Source of the DNA: an uncultured Planctomycetota bacterium
GTDB taxonomy: Bacteria > Planctomycetota > Planctomycetia > Gemmatales > Gemmataceae
Assembly (NCBI GenBank): GCA_963849325.1
Contig: CAWKHF010000002.1
Location: forward strand, 608,001 to 672,000
Direction of reading: 5' to 3'
Length of the DNA: 64,000 nucleotides
Below the pieces are notes generated by a model. It worked only from the letters and a program-made list of their open reading frames with translations. It made no database searches and was not told the DNA's origin. The translations under genes were made by a program, and so were the position numbers. This document shows, piece after piece, positions 39,819-56,019 of the stretch; the first letter of the stretch is position 1, and each line of letters opens with the position of its first letter.

Positions 39819-40454
39819 ATGGTCAACGAAGACACTCCCTCTCCGCGCAAGGATACCTATTTCGTGAGCTTGCTACAGCGAATGACTGACGGCGATGAAC
39901 GCGCCGCCGAGGAATTCGTTCAGCACTACGCCCCCCTCCTCCGCATGGTCATCAAGAAGCGCCTGCAGCTCGGTCGGCCTATCGGTTTCGTCTACGACGT
40001 GGGTGATGGGGTGCAGGACTCCTTCAAATCGTTCTGGCGCATTGTCGTCGAAGGACTGCTCCCCGAGGACCTGGACAATGACGCGAAACTGACCGCGTAC
40101 CTCAAGCAATTGGCGCGGTTCAAGGCGGCCAAGGCGTGTCGTGCCTACACGGGCACGGCCAAGCGCGACGTGCGCCGTCACAAATCGCTGGACGATGGAG
40201 ATCCCAAAGTGGCCGCCCTGATAGACCCATCTCCCGATCCGGCGGAGATGACCGAAAAACACGAGCTGTTGAAACGAGCGCTGGCTTCACTGTCTTTCCA
40301 AGAGCGGCTCGCCCTCCACCTGCATTCCCAGCGACGGCCCTTTCGGGAAATCGCCGAGGAACTCGATTGCAGCGAGGAGACCGCGCGACGAACCGTTTTC
40401 CGACTCCTTCTCCGCTTATCGGATGTGTCTCGAGATCACGAATACGCGACGTGA
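39819..40454 (+). CDS. ECF-type sigma factor (planctomycete group)
   Basis: GDERAAEEF, DGVQDSFKSF, AKRDVRR, FREIAEELDCSEETARR. Confidence 0.8.
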   Translation: MVNEDTPSPRKDTYFVSLLQRMTDGDERAAEEFVQHYAPLLRMVIKKRLQLGRPIGFVYDVGDGVQDSFKSFWRIVVEGLLPEDLDNDAKLTAYLKQLARFKAAKACRAYTGTAKRDVRRHKSLDDGDPKVAALIDPSPDPAEMTEKHELLKRALASLSFQERLALHLHSQRRPFREIAEELDCSEETARRTVFRLLLRLSDVSRDHEYAT

Positions 40455-40459
40455 CGTTG

Positions 40460-40909
40460 TCAGTGCGGCGTAGTCTGTCTCCCTTCAGGGGCTGTCAGCC
40501 GAGCGCGGATGTCCTCGGAGATCTCAATCGACTCCATTTCGTGAGCGCCCGGACGCATCCGGCAGCACACGGCACTGATCCGCCCTTTCGCCACCGGCCT
40601 GCCCTCGTGCGTGAACTCGAACGAGTACGTCACCGATTTGCGACCGACGCGCTCGACGCGCACGGCAATTTCCACCACATCGTCGAAGCGCACCGGACGC
40701 AGAAAATCGCAACTTGCCGACACACGCGGGAAACTGATCGGGTGTTCGCTCCCCATCATCACTACGGAGAGGCCACGCGAACGAAGATATGCCACCTCGG
40801 CGAACTCCATATAACGAAAATAATTACTGAAGTGAATGATGCCGGCCATGTCGGTGTCGGCGAAATCGACGCGGCGGCTGACGCGAAACGGCGCGGACAT
40901 GACAGACAC
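40460..40909 (-). CDS. Acyl-CoA thioesterase (4HBT/YbgC hotdog fold)
   Basis: RVDFADTDMAGIIHFSNYFRYMEFAE; PVRFDD. Confidence 0.9.
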   Translation of the reverse strand: MSVMSAPFRVSRRVDFADTDMAGIIHFSNYFRYMEFAEVAYLRSRGLSVVMMGSEHPISFPRVSASCDFLRPVRFDDVVEIAVRVERVGRKSVTYSFEFTHEGRPVAKGRISAVCCRMRPGAHEMESIEISEDIRARLTAPEGRQTTPH

Positions 40910-40918
40910 CTCCCTGCT

Positions 40919-42208
40919 TCAACGTACATATTGGCCATAGATCGCCGCCGTCTCCGCGGCCATGCGGTCGGCATGGAAGCGAGCGTGGACCGCCTCCTTG
41001 CCCTTGCGGCCTAGCTCGTCGCGGTGGGCGCGATTGTCGAACAACAGCCGCAAGGCGCGGGCCAGGTCGGCCGGATCGTCCGGGTTGACGAGCAGTCCGC
41101 CGCCGGTCGCCTCGATCAACTCCGGGAACGAACCGTGGCGCGGCTGCACCACCGGCACACCGTTGGCCAGCGCCTCCAGCACGTACAGTCCCTTCGGCTC
41201 GCGGTACGTCGTCGGCACCGATAGCACGTCGATGCCGTGGAAGAAACGCACCTTGCTCTCGTGGTCCGGCGACTCGACGTGGAGGAAGTGATCGCCCAGG
41301 CCGTGCTCCTTCATCTTGCGGTGGATGTCCTCGAAGTAGGCCCGGTTGTTGGCGCCGAGCCAGCCGGAGATGTGCAGGCGGCAGTCGTCCATACCGGGCG
41401 TCTGCCGCAAGAGATGGAATGCCTCGGCCAGAACGTGCAGTCCTTTTTCCGGACAAATGCGGGCGAAATAGCCGATCGTGAACGGCCGGGGCTGCTCCGG
41501 CCGTGGCCCGCCGTGGCCGGCGAGGTTGAGTCCGGGATGAACGACATGGATGCGCGCGCGCGGGATGGCGAAATACTCGGCCATGAAGTCGGCGTAGTAA
41601 GCCGACGTGGCGAGGAAGCCGTCGATCTCGCGGCAGTGGACGCGGACCAGGGCCAGCGATCGGCTGCGGTGCGAGGGCGGCAGCGATTCGAGAAAAATGT
41701 CGTCGCCTTGCAGCGAACACAGCACCGGCACGCGGAGTTGCCGCTTCAGCTCGTGGACCATGCCCGACAGCAGCGCGTTGGTGAGGTTGACGATCTCCGG
41801 CTTGACCTCTTCCGCCAGCCAGCTCGACGAGCTTGGCGACTTCCTTTCTTCTGATGGCCGTGCTCGCCTTCGAGCATGGAGATGGTCAGGTCGCCGAGGT
41901 CGTCCGCCTGCGTCTTGACGGCGAAGCGCGACACCCAGCGCAACAGCGGCCGGGCGTCGAGCAGGCGGTCGAGGAACCAGGGCGTGTGGCGGAACAGGCC
42001 GAGCTTCTGCTGCAGATAGACGTTGATGCCGCCGAAGAAGACGCGCTGCTGCGCTGACGTCCGGCTCATCGGTGCGGATGGGCGTGTAGGTGGGGATGAG
42101 CAGCGCATCGTGTCCCTGGCGGACGAGGGCGGCCACCAGGGTGTTGTCGTGCATGCAGCTGCCGCAGAACATGCCGGCGGCGCCTGCGGTGATGTAGGCG
42201 ATGCGCAT
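40919..42208 (-). CDS. Glycosyltransferase family 4 (frameshifted)
   Basis: MRIAYITAGAAGMFCGSCMHDN; ARICPEKG; EPKGLYVLEALANGVPVV. Confidence 0.9.
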   Translation of the reverse strand: MRIAYITAGAAGMFCGSCMHDNTLVAALVRQGHDALLIPTYTPIRTDEPDVSAAARLLRRHQRLSAAEARPVPPHALVPRPPARRPAAVALGVALRRQDAGGRPRRPDHLHARRRARPSEERKSPSSSSWLAEEVKPEIVNLTNALLSGMVHELKRQLRVPVLCSLQGDDIFLESLPPSHRSRSLALVRVHCREIDGFLATSAYYADFMAEYFAIPRARIHVVHPGLNLAGHGGPRPEQPRPFTIGYFARICPEKGLHVLAEAFHLLRQTPGMDDCRLHISGWLGANNRAYFEDIHRKMKEHGLGDHFLHVESPDHESKVRFFHGIDVLSVPTTYREPKGLYVLEALANGVPVVQPRHGSFPELIEATGGGLLVNPDDPADLARALRLLFDNRAHRDELGRKGKEAVHARFHADRMAAETAAIYGQYVR

Positions 42209-42230
42209 GGCCAATCCACTGCGCCGGCCC

Positions 42231-43714
42231 TCAAACGGCGACCTTCTCGGGCACGGCTCGGGGAGGAAGAAGGACAGCAAGAAGCCCGCCAGAAGGACGA
42301 ATCCGACGACCGCCGCCGCGGCATAGGCCATGTCCGTGGCCTCCTGTACCGGCGTGGGTTTGCCGCCGCCCCGCGCCAGCAGGGCCGCCAGCTCATTCGT
42401 CACGAGGGCGAACGAGGTGCCGAGGACGCGGCCGCCGAGGTTGGCGGCGCAGCTCTCGCCGGTGCCGCGGAGGTGAACCGGGTAGACCGTCGGCAGGTAG
42501 TTGCCCCAGAAACTGAACTGGGCCACGGTCAGCAGACCCACGAGGAAGATGCCGGCGTGGAACCAGGTGACCTGCATCGCCTTGCCACCGAGGTTCAATG
42601 AGAACAATTCCCGATTGTGGAGTACGCCGTAGCCGAACACCAGCGGCGCGATCAGAAGGCAGGGCACCAGGAAAAGGCGCAGCAGGTTGCGGCGGCTGAC
42701 GATGTACACGGCCAGGAGGGCCAGCAAGAAGCGGCCGAGGAGGCCGCCAACCTCCTGGAACGTCCCATAGAGACCGGTCATATCGCGCGAGATCGCCGTC
42801 TTCGCCTTCTGGGCCGCCTTGGGGTCGTTGTCGCTCACTTTCTCGGCCTGCGCCTGGTAGGTCGGCATCGCCTCGATCATGTACTGCACCTGCTGGATAC
42901 CGCCGAAGGCCACGCCGTAGCTGCAGGCGAACATCAGGGTCGTCACGATCGTGGTCCGCCTTAGTGCCGGCGAGAACAACTCCGCCACGCTGGGCCGCTT
43001 CAGGGTCCCTTCCGCCTTCCGCCGCGCCCACACCGGCGACTCCGGCATGAACGGCCGAATCAGCAGGAGCGGGATGGCGGGGATCACGCCGGAGAGCAGC
43101 GTGTACCGCCATGTGGCGTGGCCGTTGGCCACCGTGCCGAGCGTGCCGGCGAGGAACTCGGGCATCCGCAAGGCCGGCAGCTGCGAAGCGTACTGGTTCA
43201 AGAGCAGATAGACGCCCGCGACGGTCATGCCGCCGAAGGACGAGAACGCCTGCGTGTAGCCGAGCACCCGTTCGCGCTGCTCCGCCTGCGGAAAAAGCTC
43301 CGCCAGCCAGGCGATGGCCGCCACGAACTCCACGCACACGCCGATCAGGGTCAGGCAGCGGAGGACCAGGAACAGCGGCAGCGACGTCGAGAAACCGGAG
43401 GCAAAGGTAGCGAGGGCGTAGAGGAGGATGCTGAACGTCAAGACGCGGCGACGGCCGAGAAGGTCGGTCAAGTAGCCGCCCACCAGGCCGACCGCCCCGC
43501 CGACCATCATCGGCACCCAAAAGAGCAACCCTTTCCAGTGTCCCCGGGTGGCCGCATCGGCGTTGGGCAGCAACTCGACGAGCAATTCCCGGCCGATGTA
43601 CTGCATGACCAGCAGAACGTAGATGTCGAAGCCAAAGCCGATGGCCGCCATCACGAGGATGAGCCAGTGGGTCAAAGTCAGGCGTTGGCGGGCTGCGCCG
43701 AAAGATACAGACAC
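42231..43714 (-). CDS. MFS transporter (fusion to the GT in the ORF track is probably an indel artefact)
   Basis: GYLTDLLGRRRVL (motif A), ELFP, PESPVW, YPVHLRGTG; about 12 TM segments. Confidence 0.88.
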
Positions 43715-43764
43715 GAGAATCTCCTGATGCCGCCGCGGCACAAGCCGGCAGGCGGAACACGATG

Positions 43765-44310
43765 TCATTCCGGCCGCACGATCTCCAGCAATTCCACCGC
43801 CGGTTGTTCGTCGCAGTGAATCAGGGCGAAACGGCCATACGTCGGTCGCGGGCCGTCGAGGCCGAACCACTCGATCATGGCCGGGCCGGGTATCACGCGC
43901 AGGAAGGCGGTCGGCTCGATGCGCCGCAGTACGTTGGCGTTAATCAAGACCCGGCCCAGCGGCGTTTGCCCGGCGAGGATCTGCTGACGAACCTCCTCGC
44001 TGCAATAGCGGAAATTGACGCGCATCAGGCCGAACATCACCACGCGGCCGCTTCCCTGGAGTGCCAGCAGGATTTTGCGCGAGTAGGAATCGCCGGCGAC
44101 CCGGTACTCCAAAACCCGGACATCGACCACCTCGCCGTGGTGGGCTTCGACGGTCACGGTCATGTGGTGCTCGTGGACGAGCAGACGGTCGTAGGGAGGC
44201 GGAACTCGGCCTGGCGGCACGAGTTCGCCCCGAGTCATGTAGTCGGCTGGCGGAAACAGGGCGAACAGACCTTGGACGTCGGTGCCGGTCGCATCGGGTG
44301 AGAAGTTCAT
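43765..44310 (-). CDS. Chorismate-lyase-like (UbiC/DUF98 fold) hypothetical protein
   Basis: LLVHEHHMTVTVE, YSRKILL, PLGRVL and VELLEI resemble the UbiC/DUF98 pattern. Confidence 0.55.
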   Translation of the reverse strand: MNFSPDATGTDVQGLFALFPPADYMTRGELVPPGRVPPPYDRLLVHEHHMTVTVEAHHGEVVDVRVLEYRVAGDSYSRKILLALQGSGRVVMFGLMRVNFRYCSEEVRQQILAGQTPLGRVLINANVLRRIEPTAFLRVIPGPAMIEWFGLDGPRPTYGRFALIHCDEQPAVELLEIVRPE

Positions 44311-46155
44311 AAGGTTAATTGTAGCAGCGGCGGGGCTGCTGGCTCCGCAGCCGGCGGATTGACGGTCGAGGACGCTATCGACCAGGTAATAGAGCAGCTC
44401 GCGCAGTTCGGTCGGCTCGATGTCGTCGGCGACGGCCTCGGCGCGAGCGCGATACTTCTCGACGAGCTTCTCGGCCTTGTCGAAGACCTGCGCCTTCGTG
44501 AACAACTGCCGCACTCGTTCGACGGGTGGCCGCGGCGGCGTCCTTGTCCGGGCCACGACGCAGCAGCGCCAGCAATTCCGCGCGGTCGGCCGGCGCGCGA
44601 GCCTTCCAGGGCCAGCGCCAGCAGCAGCGTCGGCCGGGCCGCCAGCACGTCCTGGCCGGCGATCAGCTTGTTGTCGCTGTCGCCGTCCCAGTCCTTGAGG
44701 TCGTTGAGGATCTGGAAGGCGACGCCGAGGTGCTTGCTGAAGTCGGCGACGGCCTTTTCGTAGGCGTCGGCCGGCCCGGCCAGGCGCAGGCCGGCGTACA
44801 GGGCCGCCTCGAACGCCGGGGCCGTCTTGAGGGCGTAAATCTTCAGGGCGTCCAGGGCGGTCAGCGTCTTGTCGCCGGCGTCGCGCCAGAGCAGTTCGGC
44901 CCCCTGGCCCTCGGACAGTTTCAGGTGGGCGTCGGACAAGCGGTTGAGGATGTCGGCGGCGCAGTCGCCGCCCAGTTCCTTGCGCTCGCGGCCGACCAGG
45001 CGATAGCCCAGGCCGAGCAGGTAATCGCCGACGTTGATGGCGGTGCCGACGCCGTACTGGCGGTGCAGCGTGTCCGGCCGTAGCGGAAGGTGTCGTCGTC
45101 CTCGATGTCGTCGTGGACGAGCGACGCCTTGTGAAACGCCTCGATGGCCAGGGCGGTGCGCCGCACGCTGTCGGGCAGGTCACAGCCCTCGGCCGAGAGC
45201 GTGCCGGGCGCGCCCTTGAGGGCGTCGTAGGCGGCGAGCGTGATGAACGGCCGCGAACGCTTGCCGCCCTGGCCCAGCCAGTCGTAGGCGATGGTTTCGT
45301 GCTGCGCCAGAGGGTCGGATCGTAGCCGTAACGCGAGGGAAGAAGTTCTGCCCTCGCTTACGCTGCGGCTCGACGAGTTGGGTGCCGCCAGCGGGTGAAG
45401 AGCGCGACCGCGGCGCCAGCCGGCTCAACTCCGGCTCCTCGCAAATCTGATGCGCCGGCCGCAGCAGATGAACGTAGGTCTTCGTCTCGCTTGGCCGGCG
45501 GCGGCGTCTTGCAGGTCGATCAGCTCGGACACCCAGTCGTCATCGACCGACGTGCTCGGCAGTTGCTCGACAGCAGCGGCGCGGCCACGCAGGGGATGCC
45601 GGCCAGCAGAATCTTGTCGATCGCCTTTTCCAGCACGTTCAGGCAGGCGACGCCGACGATGGCATCGACGTGGCCGCTGACGATGATCTTGAGGACGATG
45701 GGCGTGCCTTCGGAGACGAGCACCTTGTAGCCGAGGTCCTCGGCCTTGGTCTTGAAGTCGGCGACGGAGCAGGCGCCGCACTTGCGGCAATCGAGGCCGA
45801 ACTCGTCGTAGTCGGCGGGGCAGCCCTCGGCGTGCTTGAGGCAGTGCGGCAACAGCAGCAGGCGGCGCTTGAAATCGATGGCCTGCACCTGCTCGCGCCA
45901 GAACTCGTTGGTGATGCAGACCATCGCGAAGCCGAGGTACTGCTCGCCCAGGTCCATGCCGCGCAGCAGATCCTCGCCCATCTTCTGCAGGTCCGGCTTG
46001 GTCAGCGGCCGGGCGCGGTCGAGCGTCTGGCCGAGGCGGGCGGCCTCGGCGCGGACGCGGTCGCGCAGCTCGCGCGTCTCCGGGACGACCTTGAGGTGGG
46101 CGGTGCTGGGACGTTTGTCTTTCTTCTCGGCCTTGGGTTCGGCAGCGGTGGCCAC
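44307..46155 (-). CDS. DUF116-polyprenyl synthetase fusion (frameshifted)
   Basis: LLLPHCL..C..CRKCGAC, GVAC (DUF116); [43 protein letters not shown]. Confidence 0.85.
45320..45376. repeat. REP-like palindrome, family B, inside the polyprenyl synthetase gene
   Basis: tcgtagccgtaacgcgaggg / ccctcgcttacgctgcggctcgacga. Confidence 0.7.
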
Positions 46156-46165
46156 GGTGGAGTCC

Positions 46166-48014
46166 TCAGGATGGCCGTTCCGGGTGGGTCAACAGGTCGC
46201 GGTGGGAGAGTTTCTTGCGGGCGCGTCCCAGGGCGGCGACGGAGAAGATTATCGGATAGAGCTTCTCGAAATACCACAGTTTGGCGAAGTAAAACCCGAT
46301 GGGCGTGGGGTCGTACAGGCCGCCGGCCTCTACCCGCTGGACGAGCCAGGCCAGGCCGTTATTCACGGCCGCCTCCGCGTCGGGCCCGGCGTCGAGCAGC
46401 ACTTCGACGGCCAGGGCCGTTTCCTCGATGCTGGACGGCGTGTCCGCGGCCCCGCCCCAGCCGCCGTCGGCGTTCTGTGCGGCCAGCAGCCAGGCGACGC
46501 CGCGGCGGGCCGGCTCGTCCGTTCATCCTATCGAGGTCGCGGTAAGCGGCCAGCACGCGGGCGGTGCCGTAGGTGGGGTTCTCGTCGTCGGGGGCGTGCT
46601 GGTTGCCGAACCAGAGGGGCAGCCAGGAGCCGTCGGGGCGCTGAGTGTCGGCGAGATAATCCAACCCCCACTCCATCGCCACGACGTCGGCAGGCCGCTT
46701 CGCGATTAAGTGTCCAGAATGTTTGGTAGAGCTTGCCGTTGGTTCTTCTATGCCAGGCCATGACGGCCCGCAGAGCGTGAGCGGTCAGGTCGCTGCCGCT
46801 GCGGTCAAAAGGCAGATGCCCCCAGCCACGGCAGAAGGTGGGCCAACCGCCGTCGCCATTTTGCAGAGCCGAGCAACCAGTCCAGCCCTCTCTTGACCGC
46901 ACGGAAGTTTTCCTCTCCCCAACCCGTGTGTTGAAGGGCCAGCAGAGCACCCGGCGTGTCGTCCGCATCCGGCACGCCGCCCGGCAGGTCGGTCCAGGCC
47001 CAGCCGCCGGGGTCGGCCCCCGTGTAGGGATGCCGCTCCTTGTATTGCTGCCCCAGCAGCCAGTCGCGCACTTCGTCGCCTTTGTCCAGCGTGTCCAGGT
47101 CGCCGGCCGCCGCCAGGGCGTTGACCGACAGCGTCGTCACCCAGGTCGCCAGGTTGGTGTCGATCGGCCAGCTGCCGTCGGGCCGCACCGACTTCACCAG
47201 GAACTCGACGCCCTTGCTGACGACCGGATGGTCGGCCCGGCCGATGCTCGCCAGGCCCAGCGTGACGAAGCTGGTCAGCGGCGTCGCTTCGAGGAAGCCG
47301 CCGCTGGACGGCTGGATGTTCTGCAGCACGCGCAGGCTCTTGCCGATGGCCAGCCGGCGCACCAAGCGCAGCCAGCGGGATTCCGCGGCGGCCGATGGTG
47401 ATAGACCGCCTGCCCGATGGCGATGAGGGCCGGCAGGGCGTAGCTGACGACGGGCAGGCGCAGGAAGCGAAACCACGACTGCGGAAAGCACGCCAGCTCG
47501 AACGGCAGCGACGGCACCTCGCTCCAGGACACCAGGCCGGCCAGGGCGCTGGTCATCAGGATCGGCACCGAGAAGGTGCGGTCCTTGCCGTAGCGGGCGC
47601 GGACCGCCTCGGCCAACTCCTCCGGCGTCTGCGCCGTAGCGCGCGTGCAGCCAGTCGCTCGGCTGCGCCGCAAGGCTGGCGGTCGTAGGTCGCGGCCGTT
47701 CCGGCGAGGTGGAAGGCGGCGCGGCAGAGCATGGTCGTCGAGATGTTGCTGAAGCTCTTGACCGTGTCGCCCCAGCCGCCGTCGGCGTTCTGATGCGCCG
47801 CGAGCCAGGCGAGGCCGCCGGCGATGAGCGGATCGAACGATCCGTGCGCGGCGGTCGCTTTCTGGACCAGGGCGAGGGCGCTGACGGCGGTGGCGGTGGA
47901 GAGGGCGGAGGTGGACAGTTCGCCGACCCAGTGGCCTTCCGGAGTGCGTTCGGCGAGCAGGGCGGCGAGGGCGGTTTGGAAGGCCGAATCCAACTGTTCA
48001 ACCGGCGTTGTCAT
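46166..48014 (-). CDS. Squalene-hopene-cyclase-like class II terpene cyclase (frameshifted)
   Basis: [16 protein letters not shown] repeats [37 protein letters not shown] (DxDD); [15 protein letters not shown]. Confidence 0.88.
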
Positions 48015-48507
48015 CGTGCGATTTATCCTGCTGTTTCTCTTCCAGTGCGGCCCGAAGCAGGGGTAATACAGCCTTATCTTTGGGGCGCCCCGCCGCCTCT
48101 TTGGTGGCTATCAAGTGGGACAGAGACAGCAGCTTTACGGGGTACGAATCGACGAGGATCTCCTTGGTGTCATCGATTACTTGCTCATACCCACCGATCG
48201 CGCTCATGACGCCCAACAGGTCCAGGGACTCTGTGCCGATTACCAAGGTGAAATTGCTTCCCAGCTGCAAGGCGCGTTCATCGAAGGTAAAAGGAAGATC
48301 GGGTGGTAAACCTCGGAGACGCGGTTGGAGTGGAGCTAGAACTTGGGCCAGCCGAGCGATGTTTCCAGGTGTTCGGCGGTAGCAAATGTCCAGATCCAGC
48401 GTCGCGACTTGAGCTCCTTGCAAGATGGCACTAACTCCGCCAACTATCACGAACTCAACCTGCCCTTACGCCAGTCTAACGATCATGTCTTTCGCGAAAG
48501 GCCACAT
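47998..48507 (-). pseudogene. Nucleotidyltransferase (toxin-like) with an in-frame TAA at 48466-48468
   Basis: MWPFAKDMIVRLA*GQVEFVIVGGVSA..TLDLDI..LIATKEAAGRPKD. A downstream GTG at 48450 could give a truncated product. Confidence 0.65.
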
Positions 48508-48868
48508 CGTCGCGTGCCTCCCGAAGAAACTGCCTCCATCCCTCATGTCGCTCCAACAATTCGTCCGGCGTCATGGCGCGAGCCTGGGCTATCTGAGTGT
48601 AATCGACATCCCCTTGATGGCCGAGGTCGAAACCGTAAGGCTGGGTGACTCCCGGCGTAAAAGGGAGTTCGCGCGGATACCACAGGCAAGCGAGAACATC
48701 CTCCGGCGTCAAACCTTCGTATTCCGCACAAAGATCCGCCGCCGTCGCTCCGCGAGCACATCGCCCGCAGATGTATTCGACCGTGAGTCGCGTTCCTTTT
48801 ATCACCGGCTTCCCCGCCATGATCGCGGGATTGACGGTGATGCGTTCCAGTAGTTGTTTGTCCGCCAT
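48476..48868 (-). CDS. DUF433 antitoxin-like protein with C-terminal extension
   Basis: ERITVNPAIMAGKPVIKGTRLTV..EYEGLTPEDVLACLWY, then AMTPDELL. Confidence 0.8.
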   Translation of the reverse strand: MADKQLLERITVNPAIMAGKPVIKGTRLTVEYICGRCARGATAADLCAEYEGLTPEDVLACLWYPRELPFTPGVTQPYGFDLGHQGDVDYTQIAQARAMTPDELLERHEGWRQFLREARDDVAFRERHDR

Positions 48869-48878
48869 ATCGACTCCC

Positions 48879-49912
48879 TCAAATCTCCAGCTCATCCAGC
48901 GCATCCATCAGCTTGTCGAGGTCGTCCTTCGGCCCTTGCGGCTTGTCCGCCTGCCGCTTGGGGATGCCGACCGTCAGGCCGACCGCCTCGCCGGCCGTCG
49001 GCGACCAGTTCGCGGTCGCGCTCCTGCGCGGCCATCGCCAAGGCGTCGCCGCCGCCGAACAGCTTGCGTCAGGTCGATCTTCAAGCCGCTGATGTTGCCG
49101 ACCGGGGCGCCGGCGATGGCCGGCGTCTTGTAATCGGGGAACATGATGGCCTGTTCGGGACAGACCCGGCTGCACGCCGGGCAGCCGCGCTTGCAGTTGT
49201 CCTGGTTCTCGACGACAAGACGGTCCAGCTTGTCCACGCCGTAGACGCCGAACAGGCAGAAATCGAGGCACTCCATGCAATTCGTGCAGCGGCTGTAGTC
49301 GATCACCGGATACCAGCGGCGCCCCGGCTGTTGCAGCAGTTGCTCGGAGGAAAATTCCGTCTGGGGTTTGGCCGGTTCCTCGTCGCGGAGATAGCGGCCC
49401 AGCTGCACGAGCGTCGGGTTGCCCTGAATCCAGGTTTTCAGCTGCGTCTCGCGCCGCTCGCGGCACTCCGCGGCGATGCGGCGAACTTCCTCGACGTAGA
49501 CTCGTAGTCGCCGTGGTCGCGCAGGTCGAGAGCAGTAGATGTGGCGGTCGGGCACGTCGACGGCGCCGATGCCCTTGGGCGGCTCCGGTTCGCCGTCCTC
49601 CTCGTCCTCCTCGCCTCGGCCGGCGGCTTGATCTGGTTTTCGCCGTAGTGGCCCTTGATGCCGTCGCGGTCGAGCAGCCAGAAGGCGGCGCGCGGGAACA
49701 TCCAGCGCCAGGACGACCATGTCGCCCTGGACCGACTCCAGGAACAGCCGGCCGGTGTGCTCGGCGTCCAGGTCGTACAGGTAGGGCACGATCGACACGT
49801 CCAGGCCCGGCTCCATGATGAGGGCGGCGGCGATGCTCTCCTCCAGGGCCCGCTTGGCGGGGTTCTTGCCCTGGGCCTGCGACAGGACGACGGTCAGGCG
49901 TTGGCGGCTCAT
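48879..49912 (-). CDS. 4Fe-4S dicluster ferredoxin-domain protein (frameshifted)
   Basis: RWYPVIDYSRCTNCMECLDFCLFGVY; NCKRGCPACSRVCPEQAIMFP. Confidence 0.88.
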
Positions 49913-49921
49913 GGTGTCAAC

Positions 49922-50385
49922 TCAATCCTCGGTGTTGATCTTGCCCTTGATCAGACGCTGCGTCTTCTCCCAGTTGTCCGCCAGGAACTGATAGTATTCG
50001 TCCACGTCCCACAGACTCGTCGCCGGCGCAGTCCATCTCGAACAGCCAGCCGGCGCCGTAGCCGTCGACGTTGATGCCGGAGGGGTCTTGCAGCAACTCC
50101 GGGTTGAACGCGACGAGCGTGCCGGCCAGCGGGGCGAACAGGTCGGAGACGGCCTTGGACGTTTCGATGTGGCCGATCTGCTGCAGCAGCTTCGACGCGG
50201 TCGCCGGCGTTGACCTGCCAGTCGAGGAAGTACACGTCCTGCATCAGCCGGACGGCGTAGGACGTGAAGCCGAAGCGCAGCCGGCCGCCCTCACAGCGGC
50301 ACCACATGTGATTGCGCGCGTAGCGCAGCCCGCCCGGCAGCACGGCGGGGAACTTGCCCATCAGGAAGGTCAGGTCGTCGGGCAT
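49922..50385 (-). CDS. Glycine cleavage H-like (lipoyl/acyl carrier) protein (frameshifted)
   Basis: RYARNHMW, RFGFTSYA, IETSKAVSDLFAP (lipoyl Lys position retained), INVDGYGAGWLF. Confidence 0.85.
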
Positions 50386-50398
50386 GACTGCCACAAGT

Positions 50399-50471
50399 TC
50401 ACCGCGAGACGCGAGACGCAGGAATGACAAGAGTACATCATTCGTTCCCTGCGCCTCGCGTCTCGCGGTGA
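50399..50471. repeat. Intergenic inverted repeat
   Basis: tcaccgcgagacgcgagacgcagg / cctgcgcctcgcgtctcgcggtga. Confidence 0.8.
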
Positions 50472-50477
50472 TCTCTT

Positions 50478-51811
50478 TCAGGTGTAGCGCGTGCTGCGGT
50501 ACTGCGGCTCGAAGAACACCGGCAGCAGCCGATCCACCTGCAACAACCCCTCGCGCGTCAGCTCCACGCCGTCCGGCCGTGCGCGTCAGGAAGCCGCTCG
50601 CGCTTCCAGCTCGCTCGAAGCCGTCCGCGAAGCTCTCCAGGATATCCGCGCCGAACTTGTGGCGGAAGTAGGCCGGCTCCAGCCGGCCGGTTTTGAGCTG
50701 CAGGATCATCTCGCGGATCAGCCGCTGGCGCGGCGTCGACCGGCAGCGCCCGGCCCAGCGGCAGCTCGTCCCTGTCGCAGCATGCTCGACGTACTGCTCC
50801 CAGCGTATCGACGTTCTGGACGTGGACGCCGTGGACGTGGCCGAACGAGGCGACGCCGGTGCCGAACATGTCGGCCCCGTGCCACAGGCTGTCGCGGTAG
50901 ACGAAGCGGCAGCGCTGCCGGTCCTTGACCAGCGTGTAGGCGCTGGAGACCTCGTAGCCCGCCGGCGATCATCTGTCGAAGGCGTAGTTGACCCAGGCCC
51001 GCTTGGTCGGCCAGTCGGCGATCGGCCATGGCCGGCTCGTCCTGGCCGATCACCTGCAGTTCCTGCGAGAAGACGCGTGTTGAACGGCAATTCCATCTGG
51101 TAGATGGTGACGCTGTCGGGCGCCAGGGCGAGCGTCTTGCGCACGCACTGTCTTCCAGTTGTCCCACGTCTCGCCGACCATGCCGGCGATCAGGTCGATG
51201 TTGATCTGCTCGAAGCCGAGGTCGCGCGCCCAGCCGTAGGCGCGGTAGATCTCCTCTTCGAGATGGGCCCGGCCGTTGAATTCGAGGATCTTCGGGTCGA
51301 AGTTCTCGACGCCGAGGCTGAGCCGGGTCACGCCGAGCTCGCGCAGCGCTTCGAGCTTGTGCTGCTGCAGCGTGCCCGGCTCGCACTCGAAGGTCACTTC
51401 CTCGGCGCCGTCCCACGGCAGGACTGCCTGCAGCCGCTCCATCAGGCCGCGCAGCTGCGCCGGCGCTGAGGTACGACGGCGTGCCGCCGCCGAAGTAGAC
51501 GTAGTTGCAGCGGCCGGCCGCCGACGAGCGGGACGCGGCTGTACAGCTCGACTTCCTTGACCAGGGCGTCGAGGTAGGTTTCCACGTCGCGGGCGTTCTT
51601 GTCGGTGTAGACGCGGAAGTAGCAGAACTTGCAGCGCTTCCGGCAGAACGGGATGTGCAGGTACAGCCCCAGCGGCGTGCCGGGCTGCGGCGGCCGCGTC
51701 GAGGGCGGCGCGGGCGTCGGGCAGGTGGGCCGGCTTCCAGGCCGAGAACGGCGGATAGTTGGCGACGAAGTAGTTGCCCAATCCTGTAGACTCATCACAA
51801 GTCTTTGTCAT
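50478..51811 (-). CDS. HemN-like radical SAM enzyme; N-terminus supplied by the integrated element (frameshifted)
   Basis: [51 protein letters not shown]; ends [10 protein letters not shown]. Confidence 0.9.
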
Positions 51812-51940: not shown

Positions 51941-53016
51941 ATGGCACGCAAGAGCCGGGTCCGTGGTGGTGGGAGGCGAGACAACAATGGTTCGTCACGC
52001 ACAAGGGCAAGCAAGTCCCTCTTGGCAAGGATGAGGCGGAAGCTCGCCGTCAATGGCACTTCCTTGAAGCAAGTGCCCAAACGCATACGGCAGGTGACGG
52101 CAACCTCTTCGTTGCCCTTGCCGACAACTTCCTTGACTGGATCAAGCGGCACAAGAAACCGAAGACGTTCAGCGTCTATCGTATCCATTTGGAGGCGTTC
52201 GGCAAGGTGCATCCTACGGTCGCTGTCCACGAATTGAAACCTCATCATGTTGACGCTGTTGTCCAGCTTCATCCGACCTGGGGCAAGAGTACGATTCGTG
52301 GGTTCATGGTGGCTGTGAACACTTGCCTGAATTGGGCAGTTAAGCAAGGGTTCACGACACGGAACCCGCTCCATCGTCGTCTGACCATCCCCGCCATCGT
52401 CAGCCGTGGCGGTCAGAAGGATGTACCGATCCCGCCGGAGGACTACGCCGTGATGCTCGCCCATGCGAACCCGAACCTGAGAGACTTCATCATCGCTTGT
52501 CGCAATACTGGCACTCGCCCTGAGAACGTAGCAGCGGCGACAGCGAAGGACTACCACAAGGAAGCGGCTTGTTGGGTTCTCGGAACGCATAAGACGGATG
52601 AGGATGGTAGCAGTCTCGTCATCCACTTGAACCCGACGATGGTAGCTTTGACGGAGCGGTTGATTGCCAAGTACCCGGAGGGTCCGTTGTTCAGGAACAA
52701 CCAAGGGAACCCCTGGCGGGATGAGGTATGGGGCAAGGCAATGGCGGGGTTGAAAAAGACGCTGGCGGCGAAGGGTATCAAGTTGAAGAGCCGGGGAATC
52801 ATGTATGGTTTCAGGCACGGTGTAGCGACCGATCTACTTGAGGCGGGAGTACCAGAGGCGCACGTTGCCGCAATCCTGGGTCACAAGTCCACGGTGATGA
52901 TCCACAAGCATTACAGCCATTTGACCAGTCGTCACGCTGCTTTGAAAGTACATCTTGAACATATCCAACCGACAGCGGGCGAAGTCACAACCGGAGATGC
53001 TTCAACCCCGCAATGA
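51941..53016 (+). CDS. Tyrosine recombinase/integrase (one frameshift within the first 7 codons)
   Basis: MARKS..PWWWEARQQWFVTHKGKQVPLG arm-binding-like N-terminus; TGTRPEN (R), HKT (K), YGFRH, LGH, KHYSH (Y). Confidence 0.93.
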
Positions 53017-53275
53017 CGGTTGTTGTCTGCCGTGGTAATCGCACAGACCCTCGCATACCTGGCGAGGGTTTTTCATTGGTACATGACGGAGCGGACGGGA
53101 ACCGGCGACGTTCCTTGTACGCCGTCACGCTGGCGGCGTAAATCACTTTCTTCGCTCCGACCGTATGCCCGTCAAGTTCGCCAGCGTCAATCAGTTTGTA
53201 GACTCTGCGACGTGAACAGCCAAGTCGTTCAGCGGCTTGCAAAGTGGTCAGTAGTTCGTTCGTGGTGCCGTTCAT
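52985..53275 (-). CDS. Excisionase-type HTH (HTH_17) protein
   Basis: LLTTLQAAERLGCSRRRVYKLIDAGEL; convergent with the integrase and overlapping its 3' end. Confidence 0.85.
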   Translation of the reverse strand: MNGTTNELLTTLQAAERLGCSRRRVYKLIDAGELDGHTVGAKKVIYAASVTAYKERRRFPSAPSCTNEKPSPGMRGSVRLPRQTTTVIAGLKHLRL

Positions 53276-53406
53276 GGTCCGGCACTTCTACGCCGTTTTG
53301 TTGACTGTCTCAAGTGAGGGTCATCCACTTTGTTTGGCAAAGCTATGGTCGGTCTGATTAGATAATCCACGGCGGCGACAATACAAACCATGAACAAAGG
53401 AACAGC

Positions 53407-53769
53407 GTGATAACAGCCGAAAAAGTGATTTCTGCATTCAAGACAAAGTACCCTGTCGTGAGGTATCAAGACTTCTATTTGGCGGGGAAAAACTACCTGA
53501 ACATACGGAGCAAGTCCGAGGCGAGCTACCATCGGAAGACAAAGCGGTATGAGTTCGGTATGCCCAGACGGGATTATGACAGGTATCTCCGTATGGTCAA
53601 AGAAGGGCGACAGGTGTACTCTCTGATAATCGAGAGCAAGTCCGACACCTTGTACATTGCCAAGCTCTCAGACTTGGCGGCGTATGCTCGGATGTACGAT
53701 GGTGACAAAGTGGACAAGGGCGGGAGCGTATTCCTGCCAAGAGACAGGTACAGGAAAGTGGAAGTCTGA
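53407..53769 (+). CDS. Hypothetical basic protein (possible degenerate PD-(D/E)xK fold)
   Basis: 120 aa; AAAGGA RBS; QDFY....YLNIRSK..YHRKTKRYEFG. Confidence 0.65.
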   Translation: MITAEKVISAFKTKYPVVRYQDFYLAGKNYLNIRSKSEASYHRKTKRYEFGMPRRDYDRYLRMVKEGRQVYSLIIESKSDTLYIAKLSDLAAYARMYDGDKVDKGGSVFLPRDRYRKVEV

Positions 53770-53835
53770 AAAAGAAGATGCCCGGTTGTGTTCAGCAACC
53801 GGGCGGTGATTTGATTCACAGAAGCGGCGGCAACC

Positions 53836-54618
53836 ATGAACCACGAAACAGCAATCTATGGTAGTATCCCAAATCAGCTTTTTCAACAGCAACCGGAGTG
53901 CGGTCGCAAGTTTGGTTACCGGCAACCGCATGGATGGACTACGCTACTCGGCTATTGGCGGGAGTCATCCAAGCTATGCCAGTTGATCGACTTGAACAGC
54001 CAGTTGCGGAAGCGGGACTACACCTGGGCGGTATCTCTGAATATCGAGCATGTACTTGACGTGGCGGAAGTCAAGCGAGTCTGGAAACATATCTGCCGTG
54101 AATTGCGTCGGCGAGATGTAGTGGCTCTTTGGCTTCGTGAACCTTCACCTGAGAACCACGTCAACTACCATCTCCTAATCGCCAGCGATCAGATGAAACT
54201 TGAATTGGCGGATGCCATTGACGCTAGTATCCCCGAAGGTATCAAGCACCACAAGCAGATTGACGCCATTCACGATGAATGGAGCCATGCCAGATACATC
54301 GTCAAGGCGAAGGTCAAGGCATACGTTGACGGCAAGTTTCTTCTCGACAAGTACAAGGACAAGCGGCTGTTGTTCGTCAAGAAAAGCGGTCTGCAAAAGT
54401 ACGGCGTCATTGGTCCATTCTGGGTTCGTCCGGTAGGCGAGCTATGGCAGACCATCATCGCCAGAGAGAAGCGGATTGCTGACGGACTGGAATCGCCGGG
54501 GGTACGAGCGGAAGTGGAACACCTGTACGAGCTACTTGACGGCACGGTATCGAGACGACAGATAGAGCGGTCGCTGGGGTTCCACGGTGGCACCGTGGGG
54601 AAGGTCGCTACACTATAG
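53836..54618 (+). CDS. Putative HUH-superfamily rolling-circle Rep-like protein
   Basis: AVSLN (motif I-like), WLRE...HVNYHLLI (motif II-like), ARYIVK (YxxK motif III). Confidence 0.6.
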   Translation: MNHETAIYGSIPNQLFQQQPECGRKFGYRQPHGWTTLLGYWRESSKLCQLIDLNSQLRKRDYTWAVSLNIEHVLDVAEVKRVWKHICRELRRRDVVALWLREPSPENHVNYHLLIASDQMKLELADAIDASIPEGIKHHKQIDAIHDEWSHARYIVKAKVKAYVDGKFLLDKYKDKRLLFVKKSGLQKYGVIGPFWVRPVGELWQTIIAREKRIADGLESPGVRAEVEHLYELLDGTVSRRQIERSLGFHGGTVGKVATL

Positions 54619-54714
54619 GTGGTATGCAAAATTGGAACACAACCGAAGAGGTTGAGCAACCAGGAACAAGCGGGACAGCGGGAACCTCGCTACACCATAG
54701 GTAGTATGCCAAGA

Positions 54715-54972
54715 CAGCGGTGACAGGTACATCAAGATCAGCGGTGACAAGTACCACTTCATCAAGATCAGCGGTGACAGGTACATCAAGATCAGCGGTG
54801 ACAAGTACCACTTCATCAAGATCAGCGGTGACAGGTACATCAAGATCAGCGGTGACAGGTACATCAAGATCAGCGGTGACAGGTACATCAAGATCAGCGG
54901 TGACAGGTACATCAAGATCAGCGGTGACAGGTACATCAAGATCAGCGGTGACAGGTACATCAAGATCAGCGG
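54715..54972. repeat. Tandem array of ten units: 8 x 24 bp and 2 x 30 bp variant
   Basis: A=CAGCGGTGACAGGTACATCAAGAT, B=CAGCGGTGACAAGTACCACTTCATCAAGAT; order ABABAAAAAA. Confidence 0.97.
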
Positions 54973-55192
54973 CTTCTTTGGGTTGTTTCGTTTCGTGGAC
55001 CGTGCCAGCCCGCTGTGTACGTTTTCGACAAATTGGAAGTGATTTCAGGCAAAGTACCCTGTATCTGACGTTATTAACGCCATAGGTCCGTGGTATCTCC
55101 CCATCATCTCCGATACTCCCTTGTCCCGATGATGCCATTCTGAACGCCTAGAATCGCTTCTGAGGCGGGTTGCGGTCCCCAAAGAGGGGATA

Positions 55193-55691
55193 GGGCTGTC
55201 TATCGAGCCGGAAAGCGACAGCGGAGCGACGGGGAGGGCGGCGAGTAGTACCTGGGTGACGGGGGGATAAGGGGAGCGAAAACATTGTCGCGCCGTTTCG
55301 CCTGACCGGCTTCAACTCCGTGTGCGCTATTAAGCAGCATTTTAATTGTTTCGGGGCGGAGAGATGTACCTGGCGGTCATGGTCCTGCCGGTCTCGGTCA
55401 AGGTGGTCGTGGTCGTGGTCAAGGCGGCGAGATGTACCTGGCGGTCATGGTCGGTCAGTGTTCGGGGGTCGATCCCGTTACGGGATTTCCCGCAACGGGC
55501 TGTATGGGTTCGTGGCGAGAATGCCCCCTCTGACGCCTCCCTGTCGCTTCCACGGTGACGGCGAGAACCGATCCGAGTATCGGGCTGTCTATCGAACCGG
55601 AAGCGGCGTAGGGGCGACGGGGAGGGCGGCGAGATGTACCTGGGAAACGGCGGCGAGCATCCGGTTGAAGGCGGCGGCGAGTAGTACCTGG
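55193..55691. repeat. Dispersed motif GGCGG(C/A)GAG(AT/TA)GTACCTGG x5 and a ~63-bp imperfect direct repeat
   Basis: Motif at 55237, 55355, 55423, 55625 and 55673; long repeat 55193-55256 vs 55582-55644. Confidence 0.85.
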
Positions 55692-55700
55692 CTATCGTGG

Positions 55701-55880
55701 TCGAGATCGTGGTCATGGTCGAGATGTCGAGATCGTGGTCATGGTCGAGATGTCGAGATCGTGGTCATGGTCGAGATGTCGAGATCGTGGTCATGGTCGA
55801 GATGTCGAGATCGTGGTCATGGTCGAGATGTCGAGATCGTGGTCATGGTCGAGATGTCGAGATCGTGGTCGAGATCGTGG
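55701..55880. repeat. Tandem array of 6 x 26 bp plus partial copies
   Basis: TCGAGATCGTGGTCATGGTCGAGATG, six perfect copies at 55701-55856. Confidence 0.97.
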
Positions 55881-55921
55881 AACCACAGCGGTTAGTTAGT
55901 GGAAAAGAAGTTGCCCGAACC

Positions 55922-55973
55922 TTGACACGGAATTGACACAGAACCCCCCGAAATGACACGGAATTGCACGGAA
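55922..55973 (+). repeat. Right arm-type integrase-binding repeats
   Basis: TTGACACGGAA, TTGACACAGAA, ATGACACGGAA, TTGCACGGAA; same orientation as the left arm. Confidence 0.8.
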
Positions 55974-56019
55974 AACGGGGCGAGACAGGCGAACAGTACC
56001 ATCCACAAAGACTGTATCT

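Follow-up and report, generated by a model that had tools for sequence, protein, structure and literature searches.

Some relatives of squalene-hopene cyclase (SHC) in planctomycetes may use a substrate other than squalene. According to the text of one comparative study, as far as it deals with the group, the planctomycete "SHC-like" proteins keep their catalytic residues, and their gene context points to a precursor that is not squalene (Santana-Molina et al. 2020, PMC7306690). A later study, in the portions that treat the same clade, calls it "unknown function", reports no function demonstrated for it, records it in the PVC, FCB, Spirochaetota and Acidobacteriota groups, and regards its substrate and product as an acknowledged open question for triterpenoid cyclase evolution and lipid biomarkers (McShea et al. 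2025, PMC12414744). In their text the two papers also give precedents for SHC-family enzymes that act on regular head-to-tail polyprenyl chains and are served by a dedicated prenyl synthase, namely the sporulenol route (heptaprenyl diphosphate synthase, YtpB and SqhC) and Lon15/AtoE (PMC7306690, PMC12414744). A putative enzyme of this kind is encoded in the stretch of DNA analysed here (the window), 64,000 nucleotides of an uncultured Planctomycetota bacterium of the family Gemmataceae, within a cluster of nine genes at positions 40460-51811. The source genome, G000, comprises 8.16 Mb in 14 contigs with an estimated completeness of 84.7 %, and the window is G000:C2:608001-672000. The cluster appears to be a rearranged, partial copy of a cassette formed around an SHC-like cyclase, which stands beside conserved genes that probably have jobs of their own. 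This reading of a module plus neighbours, with a non-squalene cyclic isoprenoid as the product, is held with moderate confidence, and the best guess for the product is a polycyclic isoprenoid lipid for which a regular polyprenyl chain, rather than squalene, would be the precursor.

Protein families were called using Pfam on the open reading frame (ORF) pieces of the window, and using Pfam and NCBIfam on the intact orthologues of G003, a genome that, with G006 and G001, served for comparison within the same genus as G000. Frame changes were called by frameshift-aware protein-to-DNA alignment against the G003 proteins, together with a GC3 frame plot. An earlier note on this DNA had named nine co-oriented products, and Pfam, NCBIfam and frameshift-aware mapping recovered all of them on the minus strand. 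The nine genes are tightly spaced on one strand both in the window and in G003, where all are intact, keep this order and are separated by -4 to 170 nt. The gene cluster as the note described it stands with respect to products and order but not with respect to its integrity, as six of the genes are broken by 36 frame changes and a DUF433 gene and a 150-aa ORF have been inserted. The note overlooked these broken frames and also two members, a radical S-adenosylmethionine (SAM) protein and a small toroid protein, that are not linked to the cluster. It was right that the window holds no hpnCDE squalene genes and no other glycine-cleavage genes; the SQS_PSY matches of G000 are on contig C11 only, its gcvT, gcvH and gcvP genes are on contig C7, and its canonical SHC gene precedes the window by about 165 kb on C2.

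The genes of the module were recognised by their shared distribution, five of the window genes being gained and lost together, which bears out the note's view of an uncharacterised terpenoid module. Six genes were scored using G003 or G040 proteins in 41 relatives (G000 and 40 others): those for a DUF116::polyprenyl synthase fusion (DUF116::PPS), the cyclase, a GcvH-like protein, a ferredoxin-like Fer4 protein, a SPASM-like radical SAM protein and the small toroid protein. Twenty genomes carried all six, 9 carried four or five, a single one (G010, 64 % complete) carried one, and 11 carried none. DUF116::PPS and the cyclase were each present in 27/41 relatives; the GcvH-like protein at orthologue level (best E <= 1e-45, or both fragments at the window locus) in 27/41 and Fer4 in 28/41, both with the pattern of the module; and the SPASM-like radical SAM and toroid genes in 28/41 each. 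Within a wider sample of 151 genomes of the phylum (>=85 % complete, G000 included), 41 carried DUF116::PPS, and at a threshold of E<=1e-25 the GcvH-like protein was found in 10 of these 41 genomes versus 0 of the 110 negative ones. With G000 set aside, nine genomes have the GcvH-like match, and in 7 of them the gene is 3-6.5 kb away from DUF116::PPS.

Five loci from two other families give the composition of the cassette outside the Gemmataceae. The order is GcvH-like, Fer4, cyclase and DUF116::PPS in one family, and (GcvH-like), Fer4, radical SAM, cyclase, DUF116::PPS and toroid in the second; the HemN-like, chorismate-lyase-fold (CL-fold), MFS, GT4 and thioesterase genes are missing from all five loci. 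Because of these cassettes and the co-distribution, the ancestral planctomycete cassette would have consisted of GcvH-like, Fer4, radical SAM, cyclase, DUF116::PPS and toroid genes. The CL-fold gene is probably an addition on the Gemmatales side, and it stands at the position that the toroid gene has in other families.

Gene order was compared around DUF116::PPS in the best 80 of 577 confirmed stretches obtained from an alignment of the fusion, one of the 80 being without a callable synthase ORF. These loci are titled Gemmataceae, Gemmatales or Planctomycetota, plus a few evidently mislabelled metagenome-assembled genomes (MAGs), and take in Limnoglobus roseus PX52 (L102) and Gemmata sp. IIL30 (L103). 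Loci with enough flank were counted as eligible for each gene. The cyclase gene lies upstream of DUF116::PPS in 47/64 loci and the CL-fold gene downstream in 48/70, while Fer4 (24/51), GcvH-like (17/51), HemN-like (17/47) and GT4 (19/56) genes are found nearby and the MFS (23/59) and thioesterase (6/51) genes downstream. Conservation of gene order in other genomes, a point raised by the note, holds in part: the arrangement exceeds chance and recurs in relatives, intact in G003, but the full order of nine genes is found at only 4/37 loci. In G013, a complete genome, the genes are dispersed, with the cyclase at 0.18 Mb, DUF116::PPS and the CL-fold gene at 3.41 Mb, the HemN-like and GcvH-like genes at 3.69 Mb and Fer4 at 6.38 Mb. 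The fullest arrangement observed is a 14-gene, one-strand version in one MAG (L074:4043-21761, plus strand), which reads HemN-like, GcvH-like, Fer4, radical SAM, cyclase, DUF116::PPS, CL-fold, FAD enzyme, MFS, GT4, thioesterase, small toroid, ATP-binding cassette (ABC) ATPase and FtsX-type permease. The FAD enzyme of this operon was considered as a module member and rejected, since it occurs in 5/5 genomes including G027, which has no module. At nine Gemmata/Limnoglobus-type loci (L089, L090, L095, L097, L098, L102, L108, L109 and L115) the cyclase gene is parted from DUF116::PPS by an oppositely oriented ORF of 316-351 aa, and the ORF of L102 (319 aa) matches Pfam ThuA.

The cyclase, a core member of the module, is encoded from 48014 down to 46181 with 6 frame changes. 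It matches Pfam SQHop_cyclase_N/C and carries the DxDD motif of class II terpenoid cyclases as VPDADDT at 46955-46975, within a VPDxDDT pattern found in 12/12 aligned cyclases. The G003 orthologue scores 113.4 bits against the SHC model TIGR01507 (cutoff 431.1), the score against TIGR04277, the library model nearest to the sporulenol and epoxy-polyprenyl cyclases, is 34 bits (cutoff 500), and a solved SHC is matched only across the final 160 residues, with E 1.8e-16. G003 and G040 each have a separate gene above the SHC cutoff, and G000 has pieces of such a gene; G013 carries the module, yet nothing in it matches canonical SHC above the cutoff. By these profile scores the cyclase is not a canonical Shc. 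Its taxon (Gemmataceae-type), its length of 644 aa (the authors' filter being 550-700 aa) and its scores under the SHC and oxidosqualene cyclase (OSC) cutoffs make it, by indirect fit, a candidate member of the published "SHC-like" or "unknown function" clade.

The second core gene, DUF116::PPS, runs from 46155 down to 44310 and has 8 frame changes. The fusion scores 125.7 bits against PF01976 (DUF116; gathering cutoff 25) and 153.2 bits against PF00348 (trans-isoprenyl diphosphate synthase; cutoff 27). The first aspartate-rich motif is HDDIEDDD at 45092-45115, which was found in 14/15 sequences, with HDDIEDND in the remaining one; there is no insertion in its DDIED, and Ala/Ser stands at -5/-4 in 15/15. 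Under the classical chain-length rule an Ala/Ser pattern at -5/-4 suits medium or long products better than farnesyl diphosphate (FPP) or geranylgeranyl diphosphate (GGPP). The isopentenyl diphosphate-site motif GGKRxRP is present in 15/15 synthase sequences, and the second Asp-rich motif is NDLKD at 44691-44717, being ND(L/F)(K/Q)D, not DDxxD, in all 15 (L013-L026 among them). Source annotations call the fusion "geranylgeranyl diphosphate synthase", and in NCBIfam the synthase domain comes nearest to short-chain enzymes, every score falling well short of its cutoff. The DUF116 part, which is matched by 4301 proteins, has a Cys-rich portion at 45769-45849 with 7 Cys conserved in 15/15 sequences. 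A structural model of this part (residues 1-260) reached a predicted local distance difference test score (pLDDT) of 69.6; a Foldseek search of the PDB with the model had no match at E<=0.001, and VIA-align returned generic Rossmann-like rows only, over residues 91-221, with a best Z of 6.0.

Two further module members lie upstream of the cyclase in the window. The GcvH-like gene (50385 down to 49925, 2 frame changes) encodes ETSKA at 50151-50165, and an E(T/S)SKA lysine motif is present in 8/8 GcvH-like sequences; this lysine we take to be at the lipoyl attachment position. The protein scores 80.6 bits against the GcvH model TIGR00527 (cutoff 115.85), and its gene is unlinked to gcvT and gcvP. 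The Fer4 gene (49912 down to 48882, 6 frame changes) encodes a ferredoxin-like protein of a 343-aa type with two 4Fe-4S motifs and an N-terminal half without family assignment. An ESM Atlas search with Fer4 returned unnamed ferredoxin-type clusters only, in Planctomycetota, Bacteroidota, Verrucomicrobiota and Acidobacteriota, which is a lead and no more.

The CL-fold protein (181 aa) is encoded from 44310 down to 43765 in an intact frame, its start overlapping the synthase stop. It was assigned to no Pfam family at E<=0.001 and to no relevant NCBIfam family at E<=0.1, and a PDB profile search with its alignment gave nothing significant, the best relevant row being 2nwi with E 1.4. Its structural model (pLDDT 89.2) had the DUF98 protein 2nwi as its best Foldseek match (E 6.6e-7, TM-scores 0.64/0.72) and also matched Escherichia coli chorismate lyase 1fw9/1g1b (TM-scores 0.55/0.60; E 1.4e-4 for 1fw9) as well as UTRA domains. 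The fold of chorismate lyase and UTRA is common to non-enzymatic ligand-binding domains. The name "chorismate-lyase-like" given by the note is borne out by the predicted structure, through 2nwi and 1fw9/1g1b, but not by any sequence-family match, and would hold as a statement on fold only.

The two members not linked to the window cluster were recognised from extended operons of relatives (G040 and L065/L074/L075). One is the radical SAM protein of about 420 aa, SPASM-like, whose gene lies between Fer4 and the cyclase in those operons and is found in G000 at C10:364379-365616; it had no conserved neighbours in six genomes. The other, found in the same operons, is a 313-aa prenyltransferase-type alpha/alpha toroid protein, with its gene in G000 at C2:515719-516645.

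The remaining genes of the cluster show a different distribution. The HemN-like gene (51811 down to 50481, 10 frame changes) encodes CRKRCKFC at 51622-51645, a radical SAM domain (PF04055, 76.2 bits vs 29.5) and a HemN_C domain. Its protein scores 189.7 against the HemN model TIGR00538 (cutoff 324.95) and 166.8 against the HemW model TIGR00539 (cutoff 205.4); the best PDB match is E. coli HemN 1OLT over the full length (E 1.6e-38), with the class C methyltransferase NocN as the runner-up. Canonical HemW is encoded elsewhere in 4/5 genomes tested, G000 included. The note's expectation that neither the cyclase nor this enzyme would be canonical Shc, HemN or HemW agrees with these scores, all of them below the NCBIfam cutoffs, and with the presence of canonical SHC and HemW elsewhere. 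The HemN-like protein is the top match to the HemN model in 5/5 genomes tested, none of the matches being above cutoff, and G027 has the HemN-like gene with neither HemF nor ChdC found. These observations suggest that the protein may be the lineage's own coproporphyrinogen dehydrogenase, or a HemN-type heme enzyme. The gene is present in 38/41 relatives, all 11 module-less ones included, and in the latter it stands without GcvH-like or Fer4 genes and has a pyrroloquinoline quinone (PQQ)-type beta-propeller gene upstream that gives no functional hint. The HemN-like enzyme as the module's radical SAM protein was rejected, since it is kept in every module-less genome and another radical SAM protein follows the distribution of the module.

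The GT4 glycosyltransferase gene (about 42208 down to 40919, 4 frame changes; Glycos_transf_1 85.2 vs 26.4) is likewise found in 38/41 relatives, including all 11 without the module, where it lies away from module genes, alone or, in G011, beside the thioesterase. As a single-copy gene it is kept in 38/41 Gemmatales-type genomes, its identity ranging over 44-88 %, and its product begins with a conserved stretch that contains Cys (…GMFCGSC…); it appears to be a conserved glycosyltransferase of a housekeeping type. The 4HBT hotdog thioesterase gene (40909 down to 40460; 4HBT_2 56.8 vs 25.5) has an intact frame and pairs with GT4. The MFS transporter gene (about 43795 down to 42221; MFS_1 57.3 vs 33.4), a variable neighbour with 2 doubtful frame changes, agrees with its G003 counterpart at this slot in only 218/507 positions, its neighbours being at 73-87 %, and the MFS proteins of G006 and G001 are only 39-43 % identical to that of G003. 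The transporter slot seems to have been exchanged between close relatives. A truncated-globin (Bac_globin) gene stands between the CL-fold and MFS genes at L055:12439-12927 and L043:12326-13105. The HemN-like, GT4 and thioesterase genes, and probably the MFS gene too, would thus adjoin the module without contributing tailoring enzymes to it.

Between Fer4 and the cyclase the window has an inserted pair on the minus strand (47998-48904), consisting of the DUF433 gene at 48476-48904 and the 150-aa ORF at 47998-48450, which is outside the module. Pfam matched DUF433 in the pair and no family for the 150-aa ORF, and NCBIfam gave nothing for either ORF. The pair is missing from this position in G003, G006 and G001, its DNA is slightly lower in guanine plus cytosine (GC), and it looks like a small mobile or toxin-antitoxin-type unit. 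Directly upstream of the HemN-like gene lies a tyrosine-integrase gene (52189-53016, plus strand), where G003 has a gene for an FG-GAP protein. The surrounding stretch at 52000-56000 has a GC content of 0.54-0.55 against about 0.65 around it and is probably an integrated element. At the other end, an extracytoplasmic function (ECF)-type sigma factor gene (39819-40454, plus strand) ends a few bases from the stop of the thioesterase gene (40460) on the opposite strand, and in G003 its position is taken by an unrelated 354-aa gene.

Two other accounts of the pathway were weighed against the module plus neighbours. According to one, in large part that of the earlier note, all nine genes serve a single pathway whose product is a cyclised prenyl compound, perhaps of meroterpenoid type with an aromatic head derived from chorismate; the HemN-like enzyme, as a class C radical SAM enzyme, would modify this compound, GT4 would glycosylate it and the MFS transporter would export it. 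The tight one-strand spacing in the window and G003, the occurrence of the nine-gene order at 4 of 37 eligible loci, the longer one-strand operon of L074, the chorismate-lyase/DUF98 fold of the CL-fold protein and the place of NocN as second-best PDB match of the HemN-like protein all agree with it. It is unlikely all the same, as the HemN-like and GT4 genes are independent of the module across the 41 relatives and are kept in all 11 module-less ones, which leaves a HemN-tailored, glycosylated product unsupported. GT4 and the GT4-thioesterase pair also occur away from module genes in module-less genomes, the cassettes of the two other families do without the HemN-like, CL-fold, MFS, GT4 and thioesterase genes, and G013 holds the pieces at four distant places. 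Radical modification by the HemN-like enzyme has no comparative support, its gene being kept without the module and missing from the other families' cassettes. The aromatic head of a meroterpenoid had only the chorismate-lyase fold to recommend it, and no Pfam aromatic prenyltransferase match was found among the nine intact orthologues. The second account takes the cyclase as a further squalene-type cyclase that is fed by the distant hpnC/D-type genes, with DUF116::PPS giving only FPP or GGPP and the iron-sulfur proteins as unrelated redox partners. G000 does have hpnC/D-type genes and a canonical SHC gene, and both the annotation of the fusion in sources and the short-chain, though far below-cutoff, NCBIfam matches of the synthase fit such a role. 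This account is nevertheless judged improbable, given that a solved SHC is matched only by the last 160 residues of the cyclase and the SHC score falls far short of its cutoff, that G013 has the module without an above-cutoff canonical SHC, that the cyclase adjoins DUF116::PPS at most eligible loci, and that the published context analysis, in its text, argues for a non-squalene precursor (PMC7306690). Several observations weigh against the module plus neighbours itself. Where a Gemmatales genome carries both the HemN-like and the GcvH-like gene, the former in most cases stands immediately upstream of the latter, and this adjacency could mean a functional tie. The relatives are not independent, the 11 module-less genomes amounting to about five genus-level groups, and 31 of the 41 DUF116::PPS-positive phylum genomes have no GcvH-like match, so that this protein is not universal to the cassette. 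The NDLKD second motif, with Asn for the first Asp, is unusual in a chain-elongating prenyl synthase and suggests that the enzyme may not be an ordinary one of that kind, and the cyclase is a candidate member only of the published clade.

A further question is whether the broken frames are real. In that case the cluster would consist of decaying pseudogenes, further disrupted by the inserted gene pair and with an integrase island alongside. The density of frame changes, 36 in 11.4 kb compared with 2 in the 1.3-kb SPASM-like radical SAM gene on another contig (C10:364379-365616), the interruption of the cluster by the DUF433 pair and the tyrosine-integrase gene in low-GC DNA just upstream are in line with decay. 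Against it, extra single bases make up most of the frame changes, and only 1 in-frame stop is left after frame correction. Identity to G003 after correction is 366/428 for the HemN-like protein, 122/151 for GcvH-like, 289/337 for Fer4, 474/601 for the cyclase, 525/606 for DUF116::PPS and 359/449 for GT4, that is 79-87 % for the five best-conserved broken genes, and the same aligner gave 0-1 frame changes in short-read orthologues. Unlinked core genes of G000 are broken likewise: the canonical SHC at C2:440974-442843 is split into at least six pieces, gcvT (3 pieces) and gcvP at C7:466328-469915 are split over frames, and so is an hpnC/D-type gene at C11:154247-155009. Broken frames track the few-contig assemblies and not lineage, the open frame of DUF116::PPS measuring 208-307 aa in G000, G002 and G007, which have few contigs, and about 520-740 aa in genomes of many contigs. 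Short-read contigs of close relatives, from four of the soil metagenome runs with small shares (<=0.12), have the frame-restoring state at 5/14 predicted sites (44300-48100), and because these short contigs belong to relatives, the sites show only that relatives are intact. Decay of the cluster is accordingly improbable, and the 36 frame changes are very probably long-read indel error. The whole G000 assembly seems to be indel-laden, and ORF-based readings of it need frame correction.

With the module plus neighbours as the preferred reading, a route to the product can be proposed. A regular polyprenyl diphosphate, joined head to tail, would be built by the synthase domain. Its chain might then be reshaped or reduced by the iron-sulfur proteins, the radical SAM protein and the lipoyl-carrier-like protein; finally the cyclase, with its DxDD aspartate as proton donor, would protonate a double bond at the chain end and fold the chain to a polycyclic lipid, bypassing squalene. 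A bolder and quite tentative proposal, for which we would not claim an even chance, is that the GcvH-like carrier, Fer4, the SPASM-like radical SAM protein and DUF116 form an undescribed redox or radical machinery that makes the substrate of the SHC-like cyclase from polyprenyl diphosphate. If true, bacteria would possess a third route to polycyclic hopanoid-like membrane lipids, one independent of squalene, in which terpenoid biosynthesis employs a lipoyl-type swinging arm. The genes to consider jointly in planctomycetes are those for the cyclase, DUF116::PPS, Fer4, SPASM-like radical SAM, small toroid and GcvH-like proteins, with the CL-fold gene added in Gemmatales, and the tempting HemN-like, GT4 and thioesterase neighbours are probably irrelevant to the product. 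The finding is a Gemmataceae variant of the cassette, and the apparent HemN-type, glycosyl and thioesterase tailoring probably stems from gene juxtaposition. The window copy is error-laden and rearranged and its own value is modest, and the question is testable through the intact copies in the cultured relatives Limnoglobus roseus PX52 (L102) and Gemmata sp. IIL30 (L103).

Literature on DUF116, SHC-like planctomycete cyclases, GcvH-like and radical SAM proteins and Gemmata terpenoids yielded no characterisation of this gene set, although overlap with the context figure of PMC7306690 is possible. Among the neighbours, the HemN-like protein resembles HemN, HemW and the class C methyltransferases in its full-length alignment to 1OLT, its CxxxCxxC motif and its HemN_C domain, and differs from HemN and HemW in falling under both cutoffs. 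The CL-fold protein shares the fold of UbiC, DUF98 (AF1396) and UTRA at an identity of 15-18 % and without a family match. The GcvH-like protein belongs to the GCV_H fold family and has its lysine in the expected motif, but unlike the GcvH of glycine cleavage it scores below the cutoff and coexists with a true gcvTHP operon on another contig. As a second H-protein paralogue outside glycine cleavage it recalls LbpA of Hdr-like sulfur oxidation, from which it differs in gene linkage, its partners being those of a terpenoid cyclase cassette instead of Hdr-like genes. The cyclase shares with squalene-hopene cyclase of the HpnCDE pathway the Pfam fold family and the DxDD protonation motif, but it lies far under the SHC cutoff, has no linked squalene genes and coexists with a separate canonical SHC and hpnC/D-type genes. 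Compared with the sporulenol route and Lon15/AtoE, no YtpB-like gene was seen here, and those pathways have nothing that corresponds to the iron-sulfur, radical SAM and GcvH-like partners; the FAD enzyme of some extended operons is also present in a module-less genome. As for the "SHC-like" clade, the text of the two papers does not name the accessory genes of the present set, namely the DUF116 fusion and the GcvH-like, Fer4, SPASM-like radical SAM, toroid and CL-fold genes. The likeness to that clade as their text describes it (PMC7306690, PMC12414744) lies in a Gemmataceae-type cyclase of about 600-650 aa with a DxDD motif, below the SHC and OSC cutoffs and encoded beside a polyprenyl synthase and not beside squalene genes.

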